A stretch of DNA of 64,000 bases from IMG/VR virus record IMGVR_UViG_3300009103_000004, positions 32,001-96,000 of that record; one strand, written 5' to 3'. A model generated the notes under the pieces. It did not search any database, was not told the DNA's origin, and saw only the letters and a list, made by a program, of their open reading frames with translations. Shown here piece by piece: positions 1,495 to 14,270 of this stretch. Position numbers and translations under genes: made by a program. Origin of the DNA: a virus. Position 1 is the stretch's first letter; the number at the start of each line of letters is the position of its first letter.

Positions 1495-2508
1495 TTACTT
1501 AGCCCTAGTAACCTCGTAATTAACCCCTCGAGTGTTAGGGTCTTTTGTCTTCTTCCAAAAAAAGCGTATCCACATAGCTCCATTGGGTTTGGGAGGCCCA
1601 CCTCGTTCTATATGCCAGCCACCATAACCATCTTCATATTCTTCTTTGTATCCTGGAGTTTTTAAATGCAGCTGTTCGTCGTGATATACTGTTCCCGTAT
1701 CATGAAGCCTAATTCGGGTAATAGGAAAGATCCATTCATTATGTGTGTGGCCTGTGCATACAATGTGAGCATCAGGTACATATACGGCTTGTCGTCCGGT
1801 CTGTATAGTCCCCTTGGTTACAGGAGCATCTCCTCCATAACCATGATGATACCAAAGATTAGTTGATGCCTGGCATTTTTGACTACCGTCAATCCGCATG
1901 TTTGAACCGCCTTGGGGTTTTCCATAATTAAATTTAAACTTAACCCACCCGCTATAACCACCTGTGCGTATCTTAGAACCAGTAGACATGTTTAAACGTT
2001 CAACGAGGCGTTCAGTTAGATTAGTCTCATGATGCTTCAGCATAGCAGTCTCATGATTGCCTGGACCCATAACGGCAAAGTTATTTGCGTAAGGTGCGTA
2101 AAACTCAGTAGCTGTGGCTACGAGCTTATCTAAATAATTACCATGCTGATGCTCGGGACGTATGTCGTCTTTACTAGCTCTTCGGTCAAACTTACCCTGC
2201 ATAGCACAAAACAGATCTCCGTAATCTATAATTACGGCGTTTCGTTCTTTAGCTTCGTCAAGATGCTTTTTCTCTAGCTCTTGATTACAATGGGGGTTGT
2301 CGTGATGTCGGTCACTGGTTAACAGGACCCAGAAGTTATCAGAAGTAGAAAGAAACCTATGATTTATAAAGTGAACGTTTCTACTTATCTCTTCTAGTGT
2401 TGTGTTGCCGGGTAGGTGTTTCTTTTCCGATTCCTCGGTCTTTACTTTTTTCTTGGTGGTTGATGTTTTATTAGTTGCTACTTTTTTATTTTTTTTAGTT
2501 TCGCTCAT
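1495..2508 (-). CDS. calcineurin-like metallophosphoesterase with Lys-rich N-tail
   Basis: SDRHHD, YGDLF, GNHE, HHG and GHTH motifs in canonical order. Confidence 0.85.
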   Translation of the reverse strand: MSETKKNKKVATNKTSTTKKKVKTEESEKKHLPGNTTLEEISRNVHFINHRFLSTSDNFWVLLTSDRHHDNPHCNQELEKKHLDEAKERNAVIIDYGDLFCAMQGKFDRRASKDDIRPEHQHGNYLDKLVATATEFYAPYANNFAVMGPGNHETAMLKHHETNLTERLVERLNMSTGSKIRTGGYSGWVKFKFNYGKPQGGSNMRIDGSQKCQASTNLWYHHGYGGDAPVTKGTIQTGRQAVYVPDAHIVCTGHTHNEWIFPITRIRLHDTGTVYHDEQLHLKTPGYKEEYEDGYGGWHIERGGPPKPNGAMWIRFFWKKTKDPNTRGVNYEVTRAK

Positions 2509-3411
2509 AATGTGTTAAATGATTTAAGTAGGCGGTGTGTTGTCAGGGGCGTCTTCCGCATCAAACGCTCCCCCGGCCCAGGCACCAGCAACACCGCCAG
2601 CACCTGTTCCCAAAAGCGTAAATAAAGCACGACGTTGTCTCTCTTTTCTGGCAGCTTCTTCACGAGCCTTAGAACTTCTAAAGTTAACCACGTTTGGAGT
2701 AAATAGCCCGGAAGTAATGTTTCCAATTAAACCGCCTGCAGTACCACCTGCTAAGCCACCAGCATAAGGAGCAGCTCCTTCAAGCTTTGCGCCTATTTCT
2801 GAAATAGGATCCATTGCTTTTCTTATGCCGTCAAAAAGACCCACATTGTCATCATCACCCCTGATGAGATCACCTATGCTATCTATGTTTTCTTGGAATT
2901 TAGTTCCGCCAGACTCAAGCTGAGAATGAAGCTCAGGAAGTAGGTGGTGTCCAGTACTCAACCCAATACCTCCAAGCATCTTCCCTGCAAGTGGCTTCCA
3001 ATTCGTTACGGGATTTCCGAAAATAGCTCTGCGAGCTCCTGGGTGAGCCAGTCCAACGCCATGGAGTCCACCTATAAGTTTATCAACAAAGTTCGGTTCC
3101 TCGCCTTTATTTTCCTCATCCTTCCAAATATCAGAATACCACTGACCGCCCAGGGGTATGTCAGCGTCATGCATATAGTAGCCGCCACCGGCACCTTGTA
3201 ACCCATGCGTACCCATCTGCAGACGTTTAAGTGTAGCGGGACTCCACCCACCAGCCCTGGTTGCCATATCACCCCCTCGACCAAACAAGGCATCAACATT
3301 TTTCCAGTTTCTTCCAGAACGCAAAGCAGACCAAAGCCTTGCTAGTTTACCAGGATCTGCTGCGGACTTTACAAATGGTAATCGATCCAATTTTTCAGAT
3401 AAGGTCTCCAT
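2505..3411 (-). CDS. Gly-rich putative virion/ejection protein (ORF 2524..3411)
   Basis: 295-aa ORF; leader ending VKSAA; glycine-zipper segments GGLAGGTAGGLIG and GAGGVAGAWAGG; lies in the RNAP-fragment block. Confidence 0.5.
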
Positions 3412-3435
3412 AATACTACAAAATACTTTACATGT

Positions 3436-4146
3436 TTACTCTGGAAGCGCAATCACTTTATTGGCCAAGTCTTTGGCTGACAACCACTCGTACTTTCCAG
3501 TGCGTGAATTTTTGAATCGTTGGTATATATTACCATCGCTTCCGAGCTTGGCTCCCCAAGCAATTCTAGTATCAACTCCAATACGTTCAGACTCAGGTCC
3601 TTCTATTGCAGAGAGGAACATAAATTCTGACGGGTGAAGGTTTTGTGCATCCTCTGTAATGGATGTAGAACTAGGTAAACCACCAGGTCCCATTTGAGAA
3701 ACCCGCCTAGCCTGCTCTGTGAGATGCATTGGGTTTATCTCCTCAAGAGCCAGGGACAATGGATTACCAGTAATTAACTTTTCCGAATACTTGTTAAAGT
3801 GGCCAGGAGCGATGCTGTTGAGATTTCCCATTCTGGATATCCTACGAACAGTGTTTCGCATCAGCTTCTCAGCATCCATGTCTATGCGCTCACGCAATAG
3901 TTTGTCAGGACCATACACCTTCCTGAACCTAAGAGAGTCGCGTTCGTCCGGGTCAACTAGGCCACGATTAATTGCCAGAACCTTTTCGGTAGCAGACAAT
4001 ATAGTGTCCACTCCACCATCTATCTCATCATCAGGGTCTTCGTCGTCGTACTTAAAGCTAGTAGTTGCAGCCTGCTTTTCATACTGAGACTCGATAGCCA
4101 TTAGCACAAAGTCATCTATGCTATCATCTTCTTCGGAATAACTCAT
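3436..4146 (-). CDS. rpoB: DNA-directed RNA polymerase beta subunit, middle fragment (fork-loop/rifampicin region)
   Basis: [12 protein letters not shown] ~ RpoB [34 protein letters not shown] ~ [46 protein letters not shown] ~ [23 protein letters not shown]; acidic leader ending EKQAA. Confidence 0.9.
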   Translation of the reverse strand: [236 protein letters not shown]

Positions 4147-5516
4147 GTGATGCTCAACGATGAATCTATAAAGTCAGATTTTGCATTTGATGAACCGTAC
4201 TGGTAACCGCCTAAGCCACCAAGTGCAAGACCTCCCATACCGCCAAGTAAATAGTTTGGAGTTCCTAACTCATCTTCTGCATCCTCTTCACTTATACCAT
4301 TTCTCTTAGCATAGTTAGAAACTCTGTTCTTATGAAGTAAGTATTGACCACCAACTCCCAACCCCGATCCTAGTATACTACCGTACAGCCCGCCACGCAG
4401 TCCCTCTCTAGGTATAGCATCCAAGCCAGAATTAATAGATTTCTTCCAATCATCAGTAATTTCATTGAATGTGTTCTTTGCCATTGCAAGTGCTCGGGCA
4501 TCTAAATCTGCCTTAGCTGCATCTACATCCGCGTTATGTTGATCTGTAGCGTCAATAATTTCATTTTGTTTGTCTTGGAGGAAAAGGTTATTAGCAACGT
4601 TTACAGCCTTGTTGGCTTCGTTGATGGCGCGCCCCTGCATGACGCCTGCTGTGCCAAGTACCATACCAGTCACGGGGTTCCAAAAAGTAGTTCCCAGCTT
4701 TTTACCTAAAGCGGGAAGACCAAACTGAGGCCCACTCATAAAGCCGGGTTTTGCAAGGCGGCGAAGGAAGTTACCTACGAAGCCTGTACGACCCTCAGGA
4801 AACAATGTGTTAAAAAAACTGATGTTTGTAGGTTTGTATGTGTTAGGCCCACTAAATATTCCACCATCACCCTTGCTCTTAGTACCAATTCTAAACTCAT
4901 CAGGAAGTATCCTGAGTCCCATCTTATCCTTAATACGACCCAAGCCATGCTTTAGGTTACTATACCAACTCAGAGGGTTTGCGGTAAATTTAGGCCGAAC
5001 GGGGTTGTGTCTTACAATATTACTTGACTGGCCTGGGATAACATTGGGTGAATTAGATGAGCCAGACAATCCAGACCTATGCAATGGATCATTTGGGTTT
5101 GATTTCATTTCCCTGGGATTTTTTTTACCAGTTAGCTTACCCCCCGTTCTAGATCTAGCTGCAAATGTACCGTCATCGGCCTTCTGCAATACAACCCTAG
5201 ATCTATGGCCCATACCTGGGAAACTCCCAGGAGCTCCCATAGTTGCTGGTGTGTGAGTTTCAACACGACGAACAACCTTGGGCCCTACACGGTTCTTTGC
5301 TGCAGTCCTAAAAGTATCTATGGGATGAAGTAGACTCCTGAAACTTATTGGAGTCCTAGCTATGCCGAGAGCCCTGCGACCTAAATTGGTGTTGAAGATA
5401 ACGTCACGACTTACACGCCCTGGCTGTTTGACGAAATCCCAAATCCCGATTTTGGCCTGCTTCTCAATTCCGTAAATCGGATCTCGTAACGCAGCTATCT
5501 TCTGCTCTAGAGTCAT
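4143..5516 (-). CDS. basic, Gly-rich putative virion protein
   Basis: 457-aa ORF; leader ending IEKQA; Arg/Lys-rich N-half, helical middle, two glycine-zipper hydrophobic segments. Confidence 0.5.
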   Translation of the reverse strand: MTLEQKIAALRDPIYGIEKQAKIGIWDFVKQPGRVSRDVIFNTNLGRRALGIARTPISFRSLLHPIDTFRTAAKNRVGPKVVRRVETHTPATMGAPGSFPGMGHRSRVVLQKADDGTFAARSRTGGKLTGKKNPREMKSNPNDPLHRSGLSGSSNSPNVIPGQSSNIVRHNPVRPKFTANPLSWYSNLKHGLGRIKDKMGLRILPDEFRIGTKSKGDGGIFSGPNTYKPTNISFFNTLFPEGRTGFVGNFLRRLAKPGFMSGPQFGLPALGKKLGTTFWNPVTGMVLGTAGVMQGRAINEANKAVNVANNLFLQDKQNEIIDATDQHNADVDAAKADLDARALAMAKNTFNEITDDWKKSINSGLDAIPREGLRGGLYGSILGSGLGVGGQYLLHKNRVSNYAKRNGISEEDAEDELGTPNYLLGGMGGLALGGLGGYQYGSSNAKSDFIDSSLSIT

Positions 5517-6550
5517 TGCGGTGGCGGCGTAGGTTGAACTGGTTGAACTGGTTGGACGGGGTCAACTTCTGGTGGATCTTCATATTCCGGATCCAATACT
5601 TTATGGAATCCTACATCAGCTAAGTGCTTGGGTATATTCGACATGAAATTACTAACGGCGGGAATTGCACTAAACGCATGGTTCATGTTGTCAGTTGCAG
5701 TCTGCCTGTAATCGTCAAAGTTCCTAGCAGTTAAAATGTCTTGCTGGCTCTTTGGCATTTGGCTGAAAGCAATTGCTGCCTGCGCCTGATCTAGCTTACC
5801 AGCATCCGGTTTAATCTTGAGATAGTTTTCACGAGCATCATTATATCTATTAGCGTTAGTAAGAGCCCAATTAGCCTTACCTATTAAGGTGCTAGTATCG
5901 TGCTCAGGATATTCTGGCACATCAAGTTCTGGCATTTCCTTAAACCCAAGCGCTGTTGTTGGGTTGTCCATAAAATTAGCTAAACCAGTTCTGGCGTTAC
6001 CCACTGCGTCTGACAGCTTGGTTTTTATAGTGTTTCCAGCTGCAGCAATATTGTCTTGTTTGTTATCCAGGATTGGGTTTCCTGTAATTCTGTTAACAGT
6101 ACTGGCAAATGTGTTAGCGCTGTTGACCTTATCTGGAAAGTCAGAAGCAGCTATCATATTTTGCCTGCTGACAGGCATATTGTTAAAATCGTTAAATGCT
6201 TTCCACGCACGGCCAAAATCAAACCCCTCGTCAGGATTTAACTTTCTATAATTCTGATAGGCATCCCAGTTACGCTTTATTCCTTCGAGACCTCCGACTT
6301 TGTCTAAAAGCCATCCGCCGCCACCTAACACTCCCAATGTTCCCAATGTTCCCAACATGGAACTCTTACCACCCATTATCCTGTTTAGTAACAAAGATAA
6401 ACCGCCAGCACCAAGGCCCCCAGCTAGGTAAGGATTGTTTCCTGCCCACCCACCAAGTTGCTTAAGTAGGGAAGAGTTAGTACCCTCTAAAGCAGCACGC
6501 TTAACTATACTATCCAACACAGCACGTTCTCTGTTAGGAAGATTAGACAT
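5513..6550 (-). CDS. Gly-rich putative virion protein
   Basis: 345-aa ORF; leader ending IVKRAA; LAGGLGAGGL and LGTLGTLGVLGGGG segments; C-terminal (PVQ)3. Confidence 0.5.
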   Translation of the reverse strand: MSNLPNRERAVLDSIVKRAALEGTNSSLLKQLGGWAGNNPYLAGGLGAGGLSLLLNRIMGGKSSMLGTLGTLGVLGGGGWLLDKVGGLEGIKRNWDAYQNYRKLNPDEGFDFGRAWKAFNDFNNMPVSRQNMIAASDFPDKVNSANTFASTVNRITGNPILDNKQDNIAAAGNTIKTKLSDAVGNARTGLANFMDNPTTALGFKEMPELDVPEYPEHDTSTLIGKANWALTNANRYNDARENYLKIKPDAGKLDQAQAAIAFSQMPKSQQDILTARNFDDYRQTATDNMNHAFSAIPAVSNFMSNIPKHLADVGFHKVLDPEYEDPPEVDPVQPVQPVQPTPPPQ

Positions 6551-6586
6551 TACTACAGATTACTTAATAATTAAATTATGTAAAGT

Positions 6587-9037
6587 TTATTGCTTTGTAC
6601 TGGATTCGGAATCAGGTTGATTATTATCCGTGTAGCACTTTGCTACATCCTCATCCGTAACGCGGATAATATTGATGCTATCCGCATCACTATCCAATAA
6701 CTTATAATACCGATGCCTACCGTCAATAATATCATTATTCTCATCAACCAATATAGGCTTAGTTGTATCAGCTTCTTCATAACGTTTTGATCCGAAGCCT
6801 GTGCGTTTGCTTCGGTTAGCCCCATTTGTAGAAAGACGTTCTAGAGCTATAGACTCAGTATCTCTACCCCCCACCAGATCAATTAATTTTATTATATCTA
6901 CTTCGTGACCGTTCTTTAGAGTCTTGGTGTGCAGGTGCACATTCTCTGCTTCTGGATTTTGGCGGTACTTACCTTTACGAGCATACTTTATTGTATTCTC
7001 TACCCACGCATCGCACGTGTTGTCTTTAACGCAACTAAAGTTAAACGCATTACAATGACCAACGTTAGTCCTATGTTGGCAAGTCCCACAAGTCTTATCT
7101 GGAGATTCAGAAGGACGATAATTAGGAGCTTCCAAGTTTATAGCAGCACCCTCTATAGAAGCCGCTGCCTTTGTGTCATCCAACCCTAGTATACCCATAG
7201 CTTGATCCCTGATATCAACTTGCGACTCATCTTTGATATCCAAGTCAGCCACAACATGCTTTGGGAGATGCAATCTAAATCCAGTGGGTGAGTGAGTAAC
7301 TCCAACAATACCTTCCTCACGAGTAGTTATAACAAAATCCTTAGGATTCTTATTCATTAAAGTACGCAACCGAACTTGCTTGTGGTGGTACTGCTTGTTG
7401 TCAGATTCATTCTTGGCCTTGATTAATTCGTCTAGAGCAGATCCCGGTTCCACTGCGGAGCTCTTCCTACGCTCCTCCTCCTCTTCAGCTTCCTGTGCAG
7501 CAAGCTCTTCCTCTTCTTCAAGACGTGCAAGCTCCTCATCAGTAAGTTCATGGGCACCATATATTTTCTTCTTATGACGAAAAGCTGCAGAGATAGGGTT
7601 GAACATAGCTTCCTTCTCATCAAATCTTTCTCTCTCTGGGTCCACTGCACCCATCTTGGGCATCATGGATTGTTCGGGCATTCCCATTTCGGGTTGCTGA
7701 GGCATTCCCATTTCGGGTTGCTGTTGCATCATGTCCTGCAACGGAGGTTGTTCAGGTATCTGCTGTTGCGGAAGACTTTGCCTTATTCTACCAAGAACAC
7801 GTTCGCGCTCTTGCTCTAAACGCTCCTGATCAGCACGATCCTTAATATCATGGAATTTATCCTGCAGCTTATCCTCTGCCTTTATCTTCTCCACATGTTT
7901 CTTGTTCTGGTGCTTTAGATCCTTTGTAACTTTCTTTGTCTTAATGGCCCTCTCAGTCTTCTGCTTATTATGCATATTTTGCATAACTTGCTTAACAACA
8001 GCATGCGGGTCGAGCTGACCACTCTCATTAAGCAAATCAGCGTTAAGTCCCTGTATCTCCAGCTTCTTCCTGCGTACCTCTAGGTCACGCTTAAACTCTG
8101 CCTGCTCTTGCTTTTTCTTAGCCTTGTCTTCCAGCTCCTGACGCTTCTGGTCCCACTTAACGAACTCCTCGGAATTTTGAGCCATTGAAAAAGGCTGTTG
8201 TGGAGCAGCAGGAGCCTGAAACCCAAACTTCCTCCAAACTGACGCAGCCTTTTCATTAAATAAATTAGGGAGTGTTCGCTCAACAGAAGACTTTGAAAGT
8301 TTAGTTAACTGTAGAGCATTCCTGACTGCAGTAACTTTATCCTCCCTGGATGCATCGGGATCCCCATTCCTAACAAGTTTACTGTATGCCTTATCCAGTA
8401 CCCTAGAGTCATACTTAGCCTTGTTAGCCTGTAGAACTTCAGGCCCCCACCTAAGCTCAAGGTCATCATCCGGTACTCCTATATCATGCAACAATGAATA
8501 CAAACGAAGAGAAGCTTGGTCTATATCCATTTTGTAAAGAGAGGTCTCTGGCTCTAATCTCAACCTGTAAGATTTACCAGTACCACGCTTTGCATTGATA
8601 TGAGCCTCGATCTCTCCAGATTCTTTTTTACGAGTGTATATGCCCGAAGATAGGCGGGCTTGATTTAATGTTACATACTCATTCCCATTATGTATCATGG
8701 TCCCACGATCTGTAACGTAGGGAACACGCATTAACGTAACTTTCTTTTTCTCTATAAGTCCGCCCTGATCTCTGTCGTAAAGGCTGAACGTTCCACGCAA
8801 CCTGTTACCAAGAAATTGATTTTTCATCAGGGCATTCTTCTGCTGTACAAGATCGTACTCTCCCTTATCAGCATAATGAACGTCATCAAGCTCCAGACGA
8901 TACTTTCCGTACTCCTGTGGAAAGCGTTTCTTAAATCCCTCAGCTACAGAGTTGAATGTGTCTTCCCTAAGTGCTGAGAAATCATCTAAGTCTCTAAGCC
9001 TAACTCCTGTAGGTACTATGTCTCCTTTTCCTATCAT
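6587..9037 (-). CDS. rpoB: RNA polymerase beta subunit N-terminal fragment fused to coiled-coil/Gln-rich, HiPIP-like and ParB-like domains (putative polyprotein)
   Basis: TLMRVPYVTDRGTMIHNGNEYVTLNQARLSSGIY ~ RpoB [36 protein letters not shown]..CGTC-x8-C-x12-CDAW; PILVDENNDIIDGRHRY. Confidence 0.85.
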   Translation of the reverse strand: MIGKGDIVPTGVRLRDLDDFSALREDTFNSVAEGFKKRFPQEYGKYRLELDDVHYADKGEYDLVQQKNALMKNQFLGNRLRGTFSLYDRDQGGLIEKKKVTLMRVPYVTDRGTMIHNGNEYVTLNQARLSSGIYTRKKESGEIEAHINAKRGTGKSYRLRLEPETSLYKMDIDQASLRLYSLLHDIGVPDDDLELRWGPEVLQANKAKYDSRVLDKAYSKLVRNGDPDASREDKVTAVRNALQLTKLSKSSVERTLPNLFNEKAASVWRKFGFQAPAAPQQPFSMAQNSEEFVKWDQKRQELEDKAKKKQEQAEFKRDLEVRRKKLEIQGLNADLLNESGQLDPHAVVKQVMQNMHNKQKTERAIKTKKVTKDLKHQNKKHVEKIKAEDKLQDKFHDIKDRADQERLEQERERVLGRIRQSLPQQQIPEQPPLQDMMQQQPEMGMPQQPEMGMPEQSMMPKMGAVDPERERFDEKEAMFNPISAAFRHKKKIYGAHELTDEELARLEEEEELAAQEAEEEEERRKSSAVEPGSALDELIKAKNESDNKQYHHKQVRLRTLMNKNPKDFVITTREEGIVGVTHSPTGFRLHLPKHVVADLDIKDESQVDIRDQAMGILGLDDTKAAASIEGAAINLEAPNYRPSESPDKTCGTCQHRTNVGHCNAFNFSCVKDNTCDAWVENTIKYARKGKYRQNPEAENVHLHTKTLKNGHEVDIIKLIDLVGGRDTESIALERLSTNGANRSKRTGFGSKRYEEADTTKPILVDENNDIIDGRHRYYKLLDSDADSINIIRVTDEDVAKCYTDNNQPDSESSTKQ
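7677..7723. repeat. 24-bp tandem duplication encoding QQPEMGMP x2
   Basis: ggcattcccatttcgggttgctg occurs twice with 24-bp period. Confidence 0.9.
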
Positions 9038-9039
9038 AA

Positions 9040-12000
9040 CTAGTTTACTGGGGGAACTTCTTCGTTAACCTGACCCTGTACTTGTTCATCAAATAAATCT
9101 CCATATGCTTTTGAGTTATCGTTAGCTTCTCCTATTTCTCGTGCAAGATTGTGTATAGTATCGATTGCGCCATCCTCTTGAAGATTTACACTGGGGCTTA
9201 CAGGGTAGCTATTTTGAGGGCCGAAGCGTGGGCGCTCAAACTTTGGCTGAATCATATTCTTAGGATGGTCTTTTATATTTCCAACCGGTTTTCCGTCATT
9301 ATATTTCGGATCCCTCATCAACCTCTCGTACGGCAGAGCCATGTCATTAGACATGCCAACCCCGCTACTACCACCAGCGTCTACGGAAAAGTTAGCACCT
9401 TCCGGATTCCAGGTGCGATTTTTGTGCAGCTCTGCTCGGGCGTTCGCTTCATCCTCGGCTTTATACTTAGCTTTTTGTGCCTGAGATACGAAGTCAACAC
9501 CTCTGTGATCAGTTTGAAACGTTTCATACGGGAAAAATTGCCCACCTTGAACCATACCAGTGTTTGGGTCCCAAGGAGCAGCAAAGTTATACGTGTTCAA
9601 CTGCTCGTCAGAAAACCCTTCAACATTTTTAAGGTATTCGTATTCTTGTGGGCCCATAAAGTAGCCAGTTCGAGAGTGAGGCTTAAGATCGACATACCTA
9701 CCATCCTCACCGTACGGTACTTTCGTAGGATAAAATTGGTCACGCAGATCGGTGTACTTGAACGTGTGACCTCCGCCCATCGTCGCGCCAGTAGAAATGC
9801 TGCCATCAGCTTCCCTATACTGATAGGGAAAATGCCCTCCCTGATATGCTGAGTCATTCCCACCAGGAAGTTCGCTAAGTGGAAGGGTTCCACGTCCACC
9901 AGGATCGTAATCAGTAAGTGGATGCCCTTGCTCGATAGTATCGCGCCCAGAATCGGTTAAGTTACCGTCTGCATCCAAAAAGCCTCGTTGGATAGAGTCC
10001 TCAGGGTTACTACGCATATATTCCTCCGTCCACACTGGTGTCTCAGTATCTATACCAATACTGTTAGCTCCACCGCCCAGTCTCCCGCCACCCTGAAGTG
10101 CTCCTATTGCACTAGGACCACGGGATATATAATTACCGCTACCGTCTGGTATGGGAGTACCAACGGCCATATTAAAACCGTCGTCATTTCCATAAGCCTG
10201 TATGTGTTGGGCTCTATATCGCTCAACATCCGCTGGAGTAGCAGAAGAATAGCCACTGCTATGACCAGCGTGAATGTTAAACATTTTTCTTAATCCTTGT
10301 GTAAGAAGTGGATCCCTCATGGTACCATCCGAAGTAAACGTGGGGGAGGCAGCGGGGGTACCCACTTGATCTGCCCAAAAAGTACCTATGGCCCCTTTTT
10401 GTAAATTGCTCATGGGAACTCTAGTGCCAGATGAAGGTAGCCAACTCTGAGGAATGACCTTCCCACCACCTCTTTTGATGGCCTGTGTAAATGCACCACC
10501 GGCGATGGTTGCGTCCACCAGACCCAATCCAATATCCATACTTCCCTGCAACGCAGCTTCGCCAGGAGTGTATACGGCAGTAGTGCCATCTGGATACACC
10601 ACTATTTGCGGGTGTAAATCCCCGGTCTCCTTGCCGCCTCTAAAAAAGTTCCTACCTGGAGCGCCCCAGCTTTCATTAACCTTAGTAGCACCTCCCCAAA
10701 CACCAGCGTTTATAGCCTGGGCCATACCCCCCACGGTGTTTCTGATTCTGTTACCACCACCAATCCTGGGGGCACGCCCAAGAAGGTTGGATTTTTGGTG
10801 AGAAAAAAGACCATTGCCGCCATGTGTGTCACCTGCCAAGGTGAAGAAGTTTGGCGTGCCTTCATTTTTACCCCAAGTATAATTCTCCCACCTTTCCTGC
10901 GGAGTGCGAACAGTTATGGGATCATCCATACTCTCGATCACACCATCTTTAAGAAGTCGCTGCTTTAACGCATAGTGTGGGTTCCAAGCATTTTCAGTAG
11001 GGGCATTAGCCCAAGTCCCGGTCTCATGATCGTACTTTGGCTGTATATAAGGAAGTAAACTTTCTTCCAACGCTTGTCTCTCTTGTACCTTAGCAGCAAT
11101 TTGTTGGTCGATGCCAGCTGCATCGGTAGGGCCCCCGCTTTGTTTGAGGGTTTGCAGCTGAGCTATCTCTTCTGATATCTTGTCAAGTTCCCCACCAGCC
11201 CCCTGCAAAAGCTTCTGGTAATCTTTTTTCCAATAAGAAGGATACATTTTTGTACCTGACGAGCGTTCCCCTGATGGAGCTGGTAAACCATGCTCATCTA
11301 GATTCCAATATTTACCTGGGTCTATTTCTGTTGTGTTGCCTATATTGGCATGACGCCAGCCGCCAGGCTGATTCATCATAGCTGGGTCTAGGTGTCGAAG
11401 TGGTTTACCTTCCCCGTCTAACCTTACATATTCACCGGGTACAATGCTGTTGTGCTCGCCTTGTGTCTTATGGGTCCAGCCATATGGCTGGCCGTATTGC
11501 TCTTGAGGAGGAGTTGCACCACCGCTAAATGTGAGGTCTGCATATTCACCTGTAGGGTTGCCTTCAGCATCAGTGGGTACACCTGAAAACGGGAGCCACT
11601 CACGAAACCTATAAGGTGCACCATCTTTACCCGTAGGTACTATATGTTTGTTCGCTATAGGATAGTAGTCAGGAGACAGCTGCTCTAATATGTGTTTCTG
11701 GATATCGGTTGTACGCATGGGGTCGTAATACCCACCCCCGCCTGGTAAACCAGCCGTAGATTGCATAAAATCTATATCTTCTTCTCCAGGAGTTCCAGTC
11801 GCACCGTACCACGCTGCCGAAGCTGCGTCGTCTATCATATTGGGAATGGAGAATAGCTCCTTATTCCTTTCCTTCCAGTACGCGTCATCTTCTTTTTCCT
11901 TAGCAAGCAGTTGTTTATACTCCCGGTCACCTGCCTCATTAAGCTGTACGTATGTTGGCTTACCCATCTGCTGCGTACTTAATTTCCATAACTTTTCCTT

Positions 12001-12393
12001 GTAGGCAAAGTCCTTAGCAGACATCTTGTCTGGCCAGTCAGGAGGGAAGTTACCAACCTGTATACCATTCTCAGTTGTGATTTCCCTTTGGGGATAAGCT
12101 GGAAGCTTGCCGCCATGGGAGTAGTCTATTTTTGATTTCAGTATTGGTAGTTCTTTTTCTTTTGGAAAGTCCGCTTCTATAGTCTCCTCGCTTACTGGCA
12201 GCATCTCCTTCATAGCTTTTTCATACGAAGGCCACTTTTTTTGTGGGTGTATAACTCTTAGCCGGTCTACCCAGGCAAACTCTTTAGGTGACATGGTGTC
12301 TGGATAACTGTCGTCGTCAACCCATTCACGCGTGTACACTGTACCATTTGGGCGTGTGATCCCAACCATCTTGCCGGCCTTCTTGGTGAGCAT
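9040..12393 (-). CDS. large Gly/Pro-rich putative virion protein (~1117 aa)
   Basis: Long ORF; probable start MLTKKAG at 12393 because the upstream extension is AT-rich; duplicated N-terminal motif; no recognised enzyme motif. Confidence 0.55.
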   Translation of the reverse strand: MLTKKAGKMVGITRPNGTVYTREWVDDDSYPDTMSPKEFAWVDRLRVIHPQKKWPSYEKAMKEMLPVSEETIEADFPKEKELPILKSKIDYSHGGKLPAYPQREITTENGIQVGNFPPDWPDKMSAKDFAYKEKLWKLSTQQMGKPTYVQLNEAGDREYKQLLAKEKEDDAYWKERNKELFSIPNMIDDAASAAWYGATGTPGEEDIDFMQSTAGLPGGGGYYDPMRTTDIQKHILEQLSPDYYPIANKHIVPTGKDGAPYRFREWLPFSGVPTDAEGNPTGEYADLTFSGGATPPQEQYGQPYGWTHKTQGEHNSIVPGEYVRLDGEGKPLRHLDPAMMNQPGGWRHANIGNTTEIDPGKYWNLDEHGLPAPSGERSSGTKMYPSYWKKDYQKLLQGAGGELDKISEEIAQLQTLKQSGGPTDAAGIDQQIAAKVQERQALEESLLPYIQPKYDHETGTWANAPTENAWNPHYALKQRLLKDGVIESMDDPITVRTPQERWENYTWGKNEGTPNFFTLAGDTHGGNGLFSHQKSNLLGRAPRIGGGNRIRNTVGGMAQAINAGVWGGATKVNESWGAPGRNFFRGGKETGDLHPQIVVYPDGTTAVYTPGEAALQGSMDIGLGLVDATIAGGAFTQAIKRGGGKVIPQSWLPSSGTRVPMSNLQKGAIGTFWADQVGTPAASPTFTSDGTMRDPLLTQGLRKMFNIHAGHSSGYSSATPADVERYRAQHIQAYGNDDGFNMAVGTPIPDGSGNYISRGPSAIGALQGGGRLGGGANSIGIDTETPVWTEEYMRSNPEDSIQRGFLDADGNLTDSGRDTIEQGHPLTDYDPGGRGTLPLSELPGGNDSAYQGGHFPYQYREADGSISTGATMGGGHTFKYTDLRDQFYPTKVPYGEDGRYVDLKPHSRTGYFMGPQEYEYLKNVEGFSDEQLNTYNFAAPWDPNTGMVQGGQFFPYETFQTDHRGVDFVSQAQKAKYKAEDEANARAELHKNRTWNPEGANFSVDAGGSSGVGMSNDMALPYERLMRDPKYNDGKPVGNIKDHPKNMIQPKFERPRFGPQNSYPVSPSVNLQEDGAIDTIHNLAREIGEANDNSKAYGDLFDEQVQGQVNEEVPPVN

Positions 12394-12478
12394 GGGGGTA
12401 CCAACTTTAAATAAATTGTACTTATCCTTATTAGTCACGTAGGAAATTAAATACCAAACGATAAAGTTATGCAACAGA

Positions 12479-12529
12479 TAAAAAAAATCGCGGGGGCAAA
12501 AAGCTGAGGGGCTTTCGCGATTTTTTTTT
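12479..12529. terminator. probable bidirectional terminator
   Basis: A-tract-TCGCG...CGCGA-T-tract inverted repeat between the 12558 gene and the virion block. Confidence 0.7.
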
Positions 12530-12557
12530 GATATACTAAATGATATGTTTATATTTA

Positions 12558-14270
12558 TTATTCACTTAAACCCGTGGGAGGGGTCAACTCATATACGCCG
12601 GCTTGGGAGCTATTATGCCAGGTAACATGATCTATCGCGTAGTATATGTACCCGATCTCCTGCATTGAATCTCGAAGTATATGAGAAAAGAATCCCGGGC
12701 ATTTGCTTAACAGGAAACTTTCTATAATCTCTAGAGACAACAGTAATACCTCTTCTACATGTTTTTGGTTCCTTACTCTAGAGAGCTCTGCCCATTCTTT
12801 ACGAATAGCGTTTACTATATAACTCTTTGGCAGAAGCCTGCTCTCGCAGTAGGAATCAAGCATTAAGAAGAACAAGAGGCGTGGGCAGGGGTTCTGCCAG
12901 AAATCAAACCTAACACTGTCAGCATTACCCGACACTTCTTGATTAGATACAGTGTTGTTAACTATAGAGTTGTAGTCATACCAGCGATGATTCCTATAAG
13001 TTTTAGCATCCAGATCTATGTAGGTACCAGTAGCACCGAATAGATTGGAACTAGCTCTAGTATTATCATCTCTGCCAGAGCCACCGCGTAGTACAGCTTT
13101 AGCAGGACCTCCAGATGATAGAAGTAACATATGCATCAGATATGATTTTATTAGCCCATACCGCAATGTATACGTACATTTTACATAAGGGTCCATAAGG
13201 CTCTCGACTGCAGAATACCTGTTCCTAGAATACCAATCATTAAAATCAAACTCTGATAGGTGGTCAGTTGGAACAGAAGGGTCTATTACACCATGATCTG
13301 CATCATAAGGAAAAAACGCATTTCCTCTTAAAGCAAGTATTGCCTGCAGAAGAATACCGTAACGTAGTATATGTTTATCCTTGGTTCGCAATAAAGCATC
13401 AGATGAATATAAATCTCCAGTAAGGAAATCACCATCTGGACCTCTCCAGCCCGCGTCTAGCCTATCTACTAGATGTTCTTGTGTTACGCCAGTATCGGAA
13501 TCTTCGTACCTAGCGTTCCTGTGAGAAAAGGGAACTTCCTCGTCTGAACAAAAAGAACAAAACGAAAGCCCGTAACCCAAGCTTTGTGTATATGCTTTAA
13601 GATAATCAATAGCGTAATTACGTATGACCTCCTTTAAAAACCGGATGCGATTGGTGTGAGTTCCGAATATAGAGTACATCCTACCATAACCACCCTCGAC
13701 GGTCCACCAACCACGTCGGTGTTCCATCCTGCCGTTTATATTGGTGTTGCCGTTCCTAACCATCCTGTAAGAGTAATACTGCGTATACTTATTGTTATGG
13801 GAATAATCTATAGTGTATGTATCCCTCACAAACTTGTTGTTGTCAGCGCCAACGCAGAGAATACCGGAGTTCTCAGACCTGTAGATACGAGAGCCAGTGT
13901 AGGAGAGAATACGATTCTTATAACCATTCGTTAGGTAGTAATTATTTCTTTGCTTGTGCAAAACCCAATGCGTGGTATGAATATCTATAATAGGCTCGCC
14001 GTAATACGACACCCTGTAGTATGACACCGGCGCACTGTTTTGGTTAGCTTTGGAAGCACATGCCATAGGGTAAAGGTACGTACTATCACATAGTTTCTTT
14101 CGACGTGATCCATATGGTCGTCGCCTATGTACCTGACGGCACTTATCGAAAGTCAGCAAACCATGGGCCCGTAATGTATAATTACCGCCAGGAGTGTCTC
14201 TGTAATCCCTACTAACTTTATGATCAATCTTGGGTAACTCTGTATTAGCATAATTAATTATATCAGTCAT
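12558..14270 (-). CDS. hypothetical protein (570 aa, Tyr/Arg-rich)
   Basis: Long ORF; no family recognised. Confidence 0.7.
   Translation of the reverse strand: MTDIINYANTELPKIDHKVSRDYRDTPGGNYTLRAHGLLTFDKCRQVHRRRPYGSRRKKLCDSTYLYPMACASKANQNSAPVSYYRVSYYGEPIIDIHTTHWVLHKQRNNYYLTNGYKNRILSYTGSRIYRSENSGILCVGADNNKFVRDTYTIDYSHNNKYTQYYSYRMVRNGNTNINGRMEHRRGWWTVEGGYGRMYSIFGTHTNRIRFLKEVIRNYAIDYLKAYTQSLGYGLSFCSFCSDEEVPFSHRNARYEDSDTGVTQEHLVDRLDAGWRGPDGDFLTGDLYSSDALLRTKDKHILRYGILLQAILALRGNAFFPYDADHGVIDPSVPTDHLSEFDFNDWYSRNRYSAVESLMDPYVKCTYTLRYGLIKSYLMHMLLLSSGGPAKAVLRGGSGRDDNTRASSNLFGATGTYIDLDAKTYRNHRWYDYNSIVNNTVSNQEVSGNADSVRFDFWQNPCPRLLFFLMLDSYCESRLLPKSYIVNAIRKEWAELSRVRNQKHVEEVLLLSLEIIESFLLSKCPGFFSHILRDSMQEIGYIYYAIDHVTWHNSSQAGVYELTPPTGLSE

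Follow-up and report, generated by a model that had tools for sequence, protein, structure and literature searches.

Jumbo phages of the phiKZ/AR9 type encode an α-less, packaged RNA polymerase in which β is divided into three pieces and β′ into two, the latter being split after the catalytic barrel, as it is in cyanobacteria (PMC7598289, PMC7824862). In Salmonella phage Arash, the 1525-amino-acid (aa) protein gp206 carries the domains Rpb2_3, Rpb2_6, Rpb1_1 and Rpb1_2 and is therefore β fused to the N-terminal half of β′, and the 606-aa gp216 represents the C-terminal half of β′ (OQ632216); both proteins are among the most abundant in Arash virions, with 3516 and 1210 spectra, respectively, by mass spectrometry (PMC10585845). 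Another relevant system is that of the polyvalent proteins, in which one polypeptide in a late-gene context chains an early-acting enzyme to exchangeable modules, and for which packaging and injection have been predicted (PMC5512222, Iyer et al. 2017); their repertoire comprises ParB-like, InPase, 2H, NUDIX and lysozyme modules, including a DdrB-like ParB DNase and fusions to N4-type virion RNA polymerases (PMC5512222). Here we describe a bacterial-type RNA polymerase encoded by four genes (pieces A to D) of an uncultured marine phage of ~167 kb, in which the first break in β is filled by sequences unrelated to polymerase. The window analyzed is a stretch of 64,000 nucleotides (nt) that corresponds to bases 32001-96000 of the 167,189-bp IMG/VR virus record IMGVR_UViG_3300009103_000004, which is rated 94% complete; positions refer to the window unless the prefix C1 marks record coordinates.

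The β N-terminal domain (piece A) lies at 8252..9037 on the minus strand and comprises residues 1-262, ending in ...TLPNLFNE, of an 816-aa open reading frame (ORF) at 6587-9037(−). Residues 6-261 align with residues 7-263 of Arash gp206 (31% identity, E 1.6e-24 by blastp) and residues 89-223 are collinear with residues 91-227 of cyanobacterial RpoB (E 3e-4, phmmer against PDB); a further 66 homologs share this domain, and the Pfam domains Rpb2_1/2 found no match in piece A. The β fork protein (piece B) is encoded by a 236-aa ORF at 3436-4146(−), in which a leader of residues 1-23 (4078..4146, minus strand; MSYSEEDD...ESQYE) stands ahead of a KQAA motif and residues 24-236 plus the stop codon (3436..4077, minus strand) form the remainder. 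Piece B matches Pfam RNA_pol_Rpb2_3 (PF04565; E 2.7e-7, 31.1 bits, cut-off 21), residues 402-617 of E. coli β (E 1.5e-7) and residues 263-469 of gp206 (E 1e-21). Its homology to gp206 and bacterial β starts at about residues 30-44 and spans the fork loop 2/rifampicin-pocket region (GPGG, EGPES). Pieces A and B tile exactly on residues 7-263 and 263-469 of the 1525-aa gp206, so that where Arash reads ...TLGKSFG|GIEPETLL..., piece A reads ...TLPNLFN up to its residue 261 and piece B reads GGVDTILSA from its residue 44. A first-pass annotation, made by a model from the letters of the window, had placed RpoB N-terminal motifs at ~8260-9037 and the next collinear segment, the fork-loop region, in 3436..4146, and these matches agree with both placements. 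Within the fork family, 36 columns are invariant over 40 members, and the GPGG and E.PE motifs do not vary in 40 relatives. The fork protein modeled alone by AlphaFold with 40 sequences reached a predicted local distance difference test score (pLDDT) of 59, a poor fold that would agree with an obligate fragment and proves nothing.

The rest of the enzyme is encoded outside the window. Piece C (1224 aa, C1:20808-24482(−)) contains Rpb2_6 (PF00562, E 1.9e-57) and Rpb1_2 (PF00623, E 5e-22), has an intact NADFDGD motif at residue 1133 and aligns to gp206 residues 493-1524; it is the C-terminal part of β (β-C) fused to the N-terminal part of β′ (β′-N). Piece D (612 aa, C1:13561-15399(−)) contains Rpb1_5 (PF04998, E 1.6e-20), is the C-terminal part of β′ (β′-C) and aligns to Arash gp216. 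All four genes lie on the minus strand and follow the N-to-C order of the enzyme; they span 27.5 kb and end shortly before the head genes, which lie downstream of them. β is divided over three polypeptides, the third of which is joined to the N-terminal half of β′, and there is no single β separate from β′. The first-pass annotation, having seen neither C-terminal β nor any of β′ in the window, had predicted that β occupies at least three polypeptides and that the rest of the contig should hold the missing pieces and their NADFDGD motif; pieces A to C and the two genes found elsewhere in the record bear this out, but the fusion of β-C to β′-N had escaped it. Its remark that the motifs can be aligned to cellular RpoB also fits the PDB results, as the best 60 matches shown for pieces B, C and D consist entirely of cellular β, β′ or cyanobacterial γ chains, with E values down to 3.5e-47. 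The break between pieces B and C is a clean fission without added sequence and that between C and D lies near the cyanobacterial γ|β′ split, a position that has also been reported for jumbo-phage polymerases (PMC7598289). Each signature polymerase domain occurs once in the record, so one polymerase set was detected. A search of the record for α and σ domains (PF01000, PF04542, PF04545) yielded no match, and ω was not searched for; divergent factors, or those of the host, may fill these roles. Arash encodes σ factors, whereas none was found here with the two σ families or by tblastn with Arash σ gp196.

Comparison with relatives shows that the break between A and B is a trait of a clade and not an artefact. 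Stand-alone fork proteins form at least 248 clusters in a search among proteins of 129-413 aa; the best 120 of these 248 clusters have fork proteins mostly of 210-240 aa, and many come from marine samples, on contigs of up to 206 kb. Among 13 IMG/VR loci, 9 of which are distinct, none has A and B in the same ORF; from 0 to 5 genes lie between the two, and the content between them varies in every relative; the closest relatives are 80-88% identical. More distant relatives (~500-560 aa) have the β N-terminus and fork in one ORF, and because these proteins, Arash, Vibrio phage D69 and bacteria are all contiguous at this point, the A|B split is derived.

It is highly improbable that removal of an intron, or a split intein, restores one continuous β. 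Relatives do bear inteins in these genes and introns commonly invade phage genes, but no Rfam family was found in window positions 2000-13000 at E up to 1, the A|B junctions lack an intein signature (Cys/Ser...Asn+Ser/Thr/Cys) and the fork protein of this phage reads EGPESERIG uninterrupted. In addition, the gap consists of two long ORFs that are tightly packed between, and partly overlap, their neighbors, and the spacer content is different in each relative. The first-pass annotation had named missing subunits or a spliced-out intron as grounds to abandon its proposal; the subunits are present, and neither intron nor intein was found. We give even less credence to the idea that the fragments are decaying remnants of a formerly intact polymerase gene, as nothing beyond the fragmentation itself speaks for decay, the catalytic and structural motifs are all intact, and hundreds of independent contigs hold the same pieces under clear conservation. 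Readthrough was also considered as an explanation and rejected.

The inteins of the relatives lie at places other than the A|B junction. In-frame inteins of 109-341 aa, with Cys/Ser1...Asn|Ser boundaries, are inserted in fork proteins at the invariant GPE|S (residue 186 of piece B) at L016:9773-11014, L015:9986-11113, L017:4009-5802 and L021:8822-11659, with one weak LAGLIDADG match. The middle β′ piece of a relative with a complete genome of 184 kb (G001; L029:2250-5384) contains a ~615-aa LAGLIDADG intein right after NADFDGD (LAGLIDADG_3, E 1.6e-6), in which the first residue is a non-canonical Glu and the C-terminal junction, SN|T, is canonical.

The nearest cultured relatives of this polymerase are those of Arash and Vibrio phages D69, D181 and D148, with 33-35% identity in β-C. 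Like the enzymes of Arash and D69, it shows collinear homology over its whole length (26-35% identity), a fusion of β-C to β′-N, and a split in β′ after the catalytic domain. It differs from them in that the β N-terminus, fork and β-C/β′-N, which form one ORF in all four of these cultured phages (~1525 aa in Arash and D69), are encoded here by three genes over ~20 kb. The first break here contains the 555-aa tail, two genes and a leader, and piece C has an insert of ~195 aa. The distinct lineage of phage multisubunit RNA polymerases that was proposed in the first-pass annotation is therefore bacterial-like, as claimed, but it is not an unknown one, since it has cultured members. Identity to bacterial RpoB is 28-29%, and that to Cobetia phage Carin-5 and Yersinia phage YerA41 is 24-26%; YerA41 β, at 24%, is less similar than bacterial β. 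In YerA41, β′ is also split, and β′-N, β′-C and β are encoded by adjacent genes.

The phiKZ/AR9 polymerases are likewise multisubunit and split, and the present enzyme would share their packaging as well, as discussed below. Their subunits are very divergent from cellular ones, whereas those described here align directly to bacterial β and β′, and phiKZ-type phages are absent from the 21 phage records matched at E 1e-10 or better, among the matches listed. A β-β′ fusion, boundaries marked by Lys-x-Ala (K-x-A), and swappable enzyme modules are not described for phiKZ/AR9, and those phages have a second, non-virion polymerase set in addition to the packaged one, in contrast to the one set detected here. 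Tailed phages with cellular-like β and β′ were also collected in the mReC survey, which demanded that COG0085 and COG0086 be found on different proteins of 800 aa or more and that the COG0086 protein contain NADxDGD (Weinheimer and Aylward 2020, PMC7481178). Within the section of the survey table considered here, every contig has two such proteins (PMC7481178). The sole polymerase protein of at least 800 aa in the present phage bears both signatures, an architecture that sets it apart and that the filter would probably miss.

The sequences that fill the first break begin within the piece A ORF, which continues for 555 residues past its polymerase part in three modules. The first of these (7466..8251, minus strand; residues 263-524) is a charged, low-complexity, coiled-coil-like spacer, of which residues 263-419 are 42-76% conserved in ~19 relatives. 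The second (7172..7465, minus strand; residues 525-622), which starts with RRKSSA, is a small α/β domain that is conserved in ~18 relatives and was modeled with a pLDDT of ~88-92 over most of its length by AlphaFold; no clear structural match was found for it (Z 5 or less). The third module (6590..7171, minus strand; residues 623-816) starts with TKAAAS and has a Cys cluster (CGTC...C...C...C), followed at about residues 725-805 by a ParB/sulfiredoxin-fold domain with a DGRHR motif that varies little or not at all over 22 sequences. Every top Foldseek match of this module is ParB, Noc or sulfiredoxin (E 5e-3), and VIA-align returned sulfiredoxin (Z 8.8), serine kinase (8.1) and KorB (7.7); the ESM Atlas provided no more than a weak ParB lead. 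All three modules are kept in 18-21 closer relatives.

Between the two β pieces are two further genes, which the first-pass annotation had recognized as Gly-rich without noticing the 555 non-polymerase residues that continue the first ORF. The g345 gene (5513..6550, minus strand) encodes a protein of 345 aa (9% Gly) that bears a VKRAA tag at its N-terminus and has two glycine-zipper helices; its family has 8 representative relatives among 1.84 billion proteins, all of which keep K17, A19, E22 and the residues of the Gly zippers, and it is a candidate capsid cargo or membrane-active protein. The g457 gene (4143..5516, minus strand) encodes 457 aa (12.7% Gly) with KIAA at residue 6 and EKQAK at residue 19, and has no homolog outside its own cluster among 8000 candidates compared. 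The stop of g345 overlaps the start of g457, and the stop of g457 that of piece B, in both cases as ATGA, while spacers of 24-36 nt lie between A and g345 and between B and the gene that follows it. The tail modules of piece A, g345, g457 and the insert of piece C have no Pfam match even at E up to 1-10, and g345 and g457 found no PHROG match either.

In other members of the family, the module after the β N-terminus is swapped for NUDIX, InPase (E 4.8e-51 at locus L009), 2H phosphoesterase, SleB-type hydrolase, GH108, phage lysozyme, LigD_N or reverse transcriptase. These observations bear on the possibility that α, ω or σ are replaced by the piece A tail, g345 and g457, which would then be accessory subunits of the polymerase and not cargo. 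The failure to find an α or σ homolog and the translational coupling of these genes to the polymerase pieces would suit such subunits, but a core subunit should be conserved, whereas relatives replace the tail by unrelated enzymes (NUDIX, InPase, 2H, lysozyme) and have from 0 to 5 intervening genes, which are not conserved either. We therefore regard this explanation as improbable. Polyvalent proteins are a fitting comparison, as the tail of piece A consists of three conserved modules and the modules of the relatives belong largely to the polyvalent repertoire. In this phage, however, the modules are anchored to part of a multisubunit polymerase, unlike the single-subunit enzyme of N4-type fusions. 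A metallopeptidase (MPTase) domain for self-processing, as in polyvalent proteins, was looked for among Pfam peptidases in piece A without a match, although its second module has no assigned fold; the boundaries carry a short Lys-x-Ala motif.

Relatives P0134, P0139, P0140 and P0141 have a β N-terminus followed in frame by a reverse transcriptase of the group II intron type (RVT_1, RVT_N, GIIM; YADD), which, at the protein level, looks like a fused module and not an intron because ~60 residues lie between the shared tail module and the reverse transcriptase. IMG/VR scans for relatives of g457, g345 and the reverse transcriptase-bearing P0139 found none.

The borders of these modules share a short motif, Lys-x-Ala/Ser-Ala/Ser. 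In piece A, KAAS (8240..8251, minus strand; residues 263-266) is a putative head-protease site at the point where polymerase homology ends, and within this ORF the motif marks each module border, at residues 263, 525 and 623. The pattern LPN[LM]F..K.A[AS].W closes the β N-terminal domain in ~60 of 66 piece A homologs, and the sequences beyond it diverge completely; the Arash sequence runs straight through the point equivalent to KAAS. The leader of the fork proteins is hypervariable, yet K-x-[AS]-[AS] is found within the first 45 residues in 85 of the 114 stand-alone members. By a similar, not identical, test, K-x-A-[AS] occurs in the first 35-38 residues of ~5% of the ORFs of this genome. The leader ending in EKQAA, from which the first-pass annotation had argued for virion packaging, is therefore a real conserved feature, but the acidic run YDDEDPDDE belongs to the conserved mature protein and not to this leader. 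Four consecutive genes are tagged in this way at residues 6-24: g345 (K17), g457 (K6), B (K24) and d295 (K15), the last being a 295-aa gene 3′ of piece B (2524..3411, minus strand; 16.9% Gly) with FVKSAA (K15-S-A-A) at its N-terminus, which is a member of the same tagged block as B, g457 and g345 and gave nothing above noise in Pfam.

Piece C carries the motif at K650 and K846, which flank the ~195-aa insert; it sits in β′ and has no counterpart in Arash. In G001, the region of the 1224-aa piece C is divided into three genes, with gene boundaries at most ~10 residues from the equivalents of both K650 and K846. There, the insert (residues 660-845 of piece C at C1:20808-24482) is followed by FAKAAST and fused to the front of the fork protein, out of canonical order; this fusion is found at L014:8822-10633/L028 in G001 and at L027 in a second relative, G002. 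The unsplit proteins of D69 (L022:7197-11780) and Arash (L002:14197-18774) both start with MPK[SK]AS, and D69 has KQAS at residue 1136, in the same place as the insert of piece C.

Trimming of head-loaded proteins is known from other phages, in which short N-terminal leaders, such as the capsid-targeting sequences of T4, and internal sites mark the proteins that are processed by T4 gp21 or phiKZ gp175. In the present genome, K-x-A accounts for 11 of the 25 lysines of a 403-aa scaffold-like head protein and for 13 of 42 in a candidate head-maturation protease (phrog_18299, E 1e-7; C1:3805-5280), compared with 6.9% genome-wide. Because the motif is present at every boundary and enriched in head-assembly proteins, Lys-x-Ala/Ser-Ala/Ser is probably the cut signal of the head protease, which would differ from a Glu-based site.

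These findings lead us to favor, as the likely explanation, a bacterial-type polymerase made from four genes in which the A|B break serves as a cargo loading site and the pieces are packaged, cut and injected. In such a scheme, pieces A to D would assemble after translation, with nothing spliced; the precursors would be loaded into the procapsid, the head protease would cut at the Lys-x-Ala/Ser-Ala/Ser motifs, and the mature polymerase fragments and freed modules would be injected with the DNA for early transcription and action on the host. An enzyme that is functional in pieces would pay no price for a break of its gene at motif sites, and relatives break it at different ones. Packaging in the capsid, as the first-pass annotation had suggested, remains a proposal, and it is the best reading of the Arash virions (mass spectrometry, PMC10585845), the boundary motif, the kinds of modules fused in relatives, wall hydrolases among them, and the position of the polymerase beside the head genes.

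Several observations weigh against this explanation. The portal gene is ~94 kb from the polymerase genes, unlike the situation in Arash, and no σ or other specificity factor was found. The motif is missing from Arash at the position that corresponds to the A|B junction, and the fork proteins of some relatives are leaderless (L015). The head-protease call depends on one PHROG match (E 1e-7); the T4-type protease family PF03420 gave no match in a search that is uninformative, since its controls failed too. The motif and the conserved Trp (KAAS.W) might serve for docking and not for cleavage. For this phage, cleavage near the Lys of the motif, packaging and activity are predictions. In addition, the role of g457 is a guess because it has no detectable relatives.

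Some of these points would also be accommodated by a non-virion, cytoplasmic polymerase for middle or late transcription, in which K-x-A and the tails have docking or regulatory functions and nothing is packaged. With a single detectable set, the enzyme must also be active after infection unless the RNA polymerase of the host assumes this role, KAAS.W exceeds a typical cut site in length, and the portal gene is far away. We consider such a polymerase unlikely, as the Arash homologs are top virion proteins, the cell-wall hydrolases fused to the β N-terminus of relatives are sensible only if injected, the motif is concentrated in head-assembly proteins, and the gene breaks of G001 coincide with motif sites. 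If the packaged, cut and injected polymerase is taken as the working explanation, the enzyme would be a fragmented multisubunit phage polymerase that is associated with the capsid and combined with cargo of the polyvalent type; the split is real and well conserved, and loading and cutting would be its proposed mechanism. Our literature search found no paper that describes either this split or its cargo modules for the lineage.

Nearly all genes are on the minus strand. Scans for consensus promoters and terminators gave no more than chance level, and no Shine-Dalgarno-like motif precedes any gene of the polymerase/tag block. TGTAGTA occurs a few bases 5′ of the ATG of d295 and g345 (3412-3420 and 6551-6560, minus strand). 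Upstream of piece A, a 1144-aa ORF (9040-12474(−)) with an uncertain start codon (TTG) stops 2 nt before the piece A start and is without a Pfam match (even at E up to 1-10), PHROG match or Arash match. Two genes downstream of the fork gene, at 1495-2508(−), is a 337-aa calcineurin-like phosphoesterase/DNA-repair exonuclease that resembles SbcD (Pfam Metallophos, phrog_7339) and has no N-terminal tag. Directly 5′ of piece C and overlapping its start is a gene for a 523-aa GNAT acetyltransferase (C1:24479-26050(−)) that has K-x-A-S at residues 22, 63 and 147 and may be another tagged cargo enzyme.

The sequences of the split polymerases of phiKZ-type phages are too divergent for the origin of their splits to be seen. 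The polymerase described here can be aligned residue by residue with RpoB and RpoC and has an unsplit cultured relative in Arash, so its hundreds of variants, in which the gene is broken at different points that can be mapped precisely, provide a natural map of the chain breaks and insertions that are tolerated in a bacterial-type RNA polymerase, and they suggest how protease processing could lead to gene fission. The modules carried at these sites (ParB-like, NUDIX, InPase, 2H phosphoesterase and wall hydrolases) are candidates for injected enzymes of counter-defence or host takeover, and Lys-x-Ala would, if the proposal is true, represent a new head-protease specificity. As a more tentative proposal, which we place somewhat short of an even chance, the polymerase gene of this family may act as a loading rack, in which exchangeable injected effectors are held at surface-tolerant points between the Lys-x-Ala sites of this head protease, and in which fragmentation may repeatedly have let the gene break, move and fuse out of order, as in G001.

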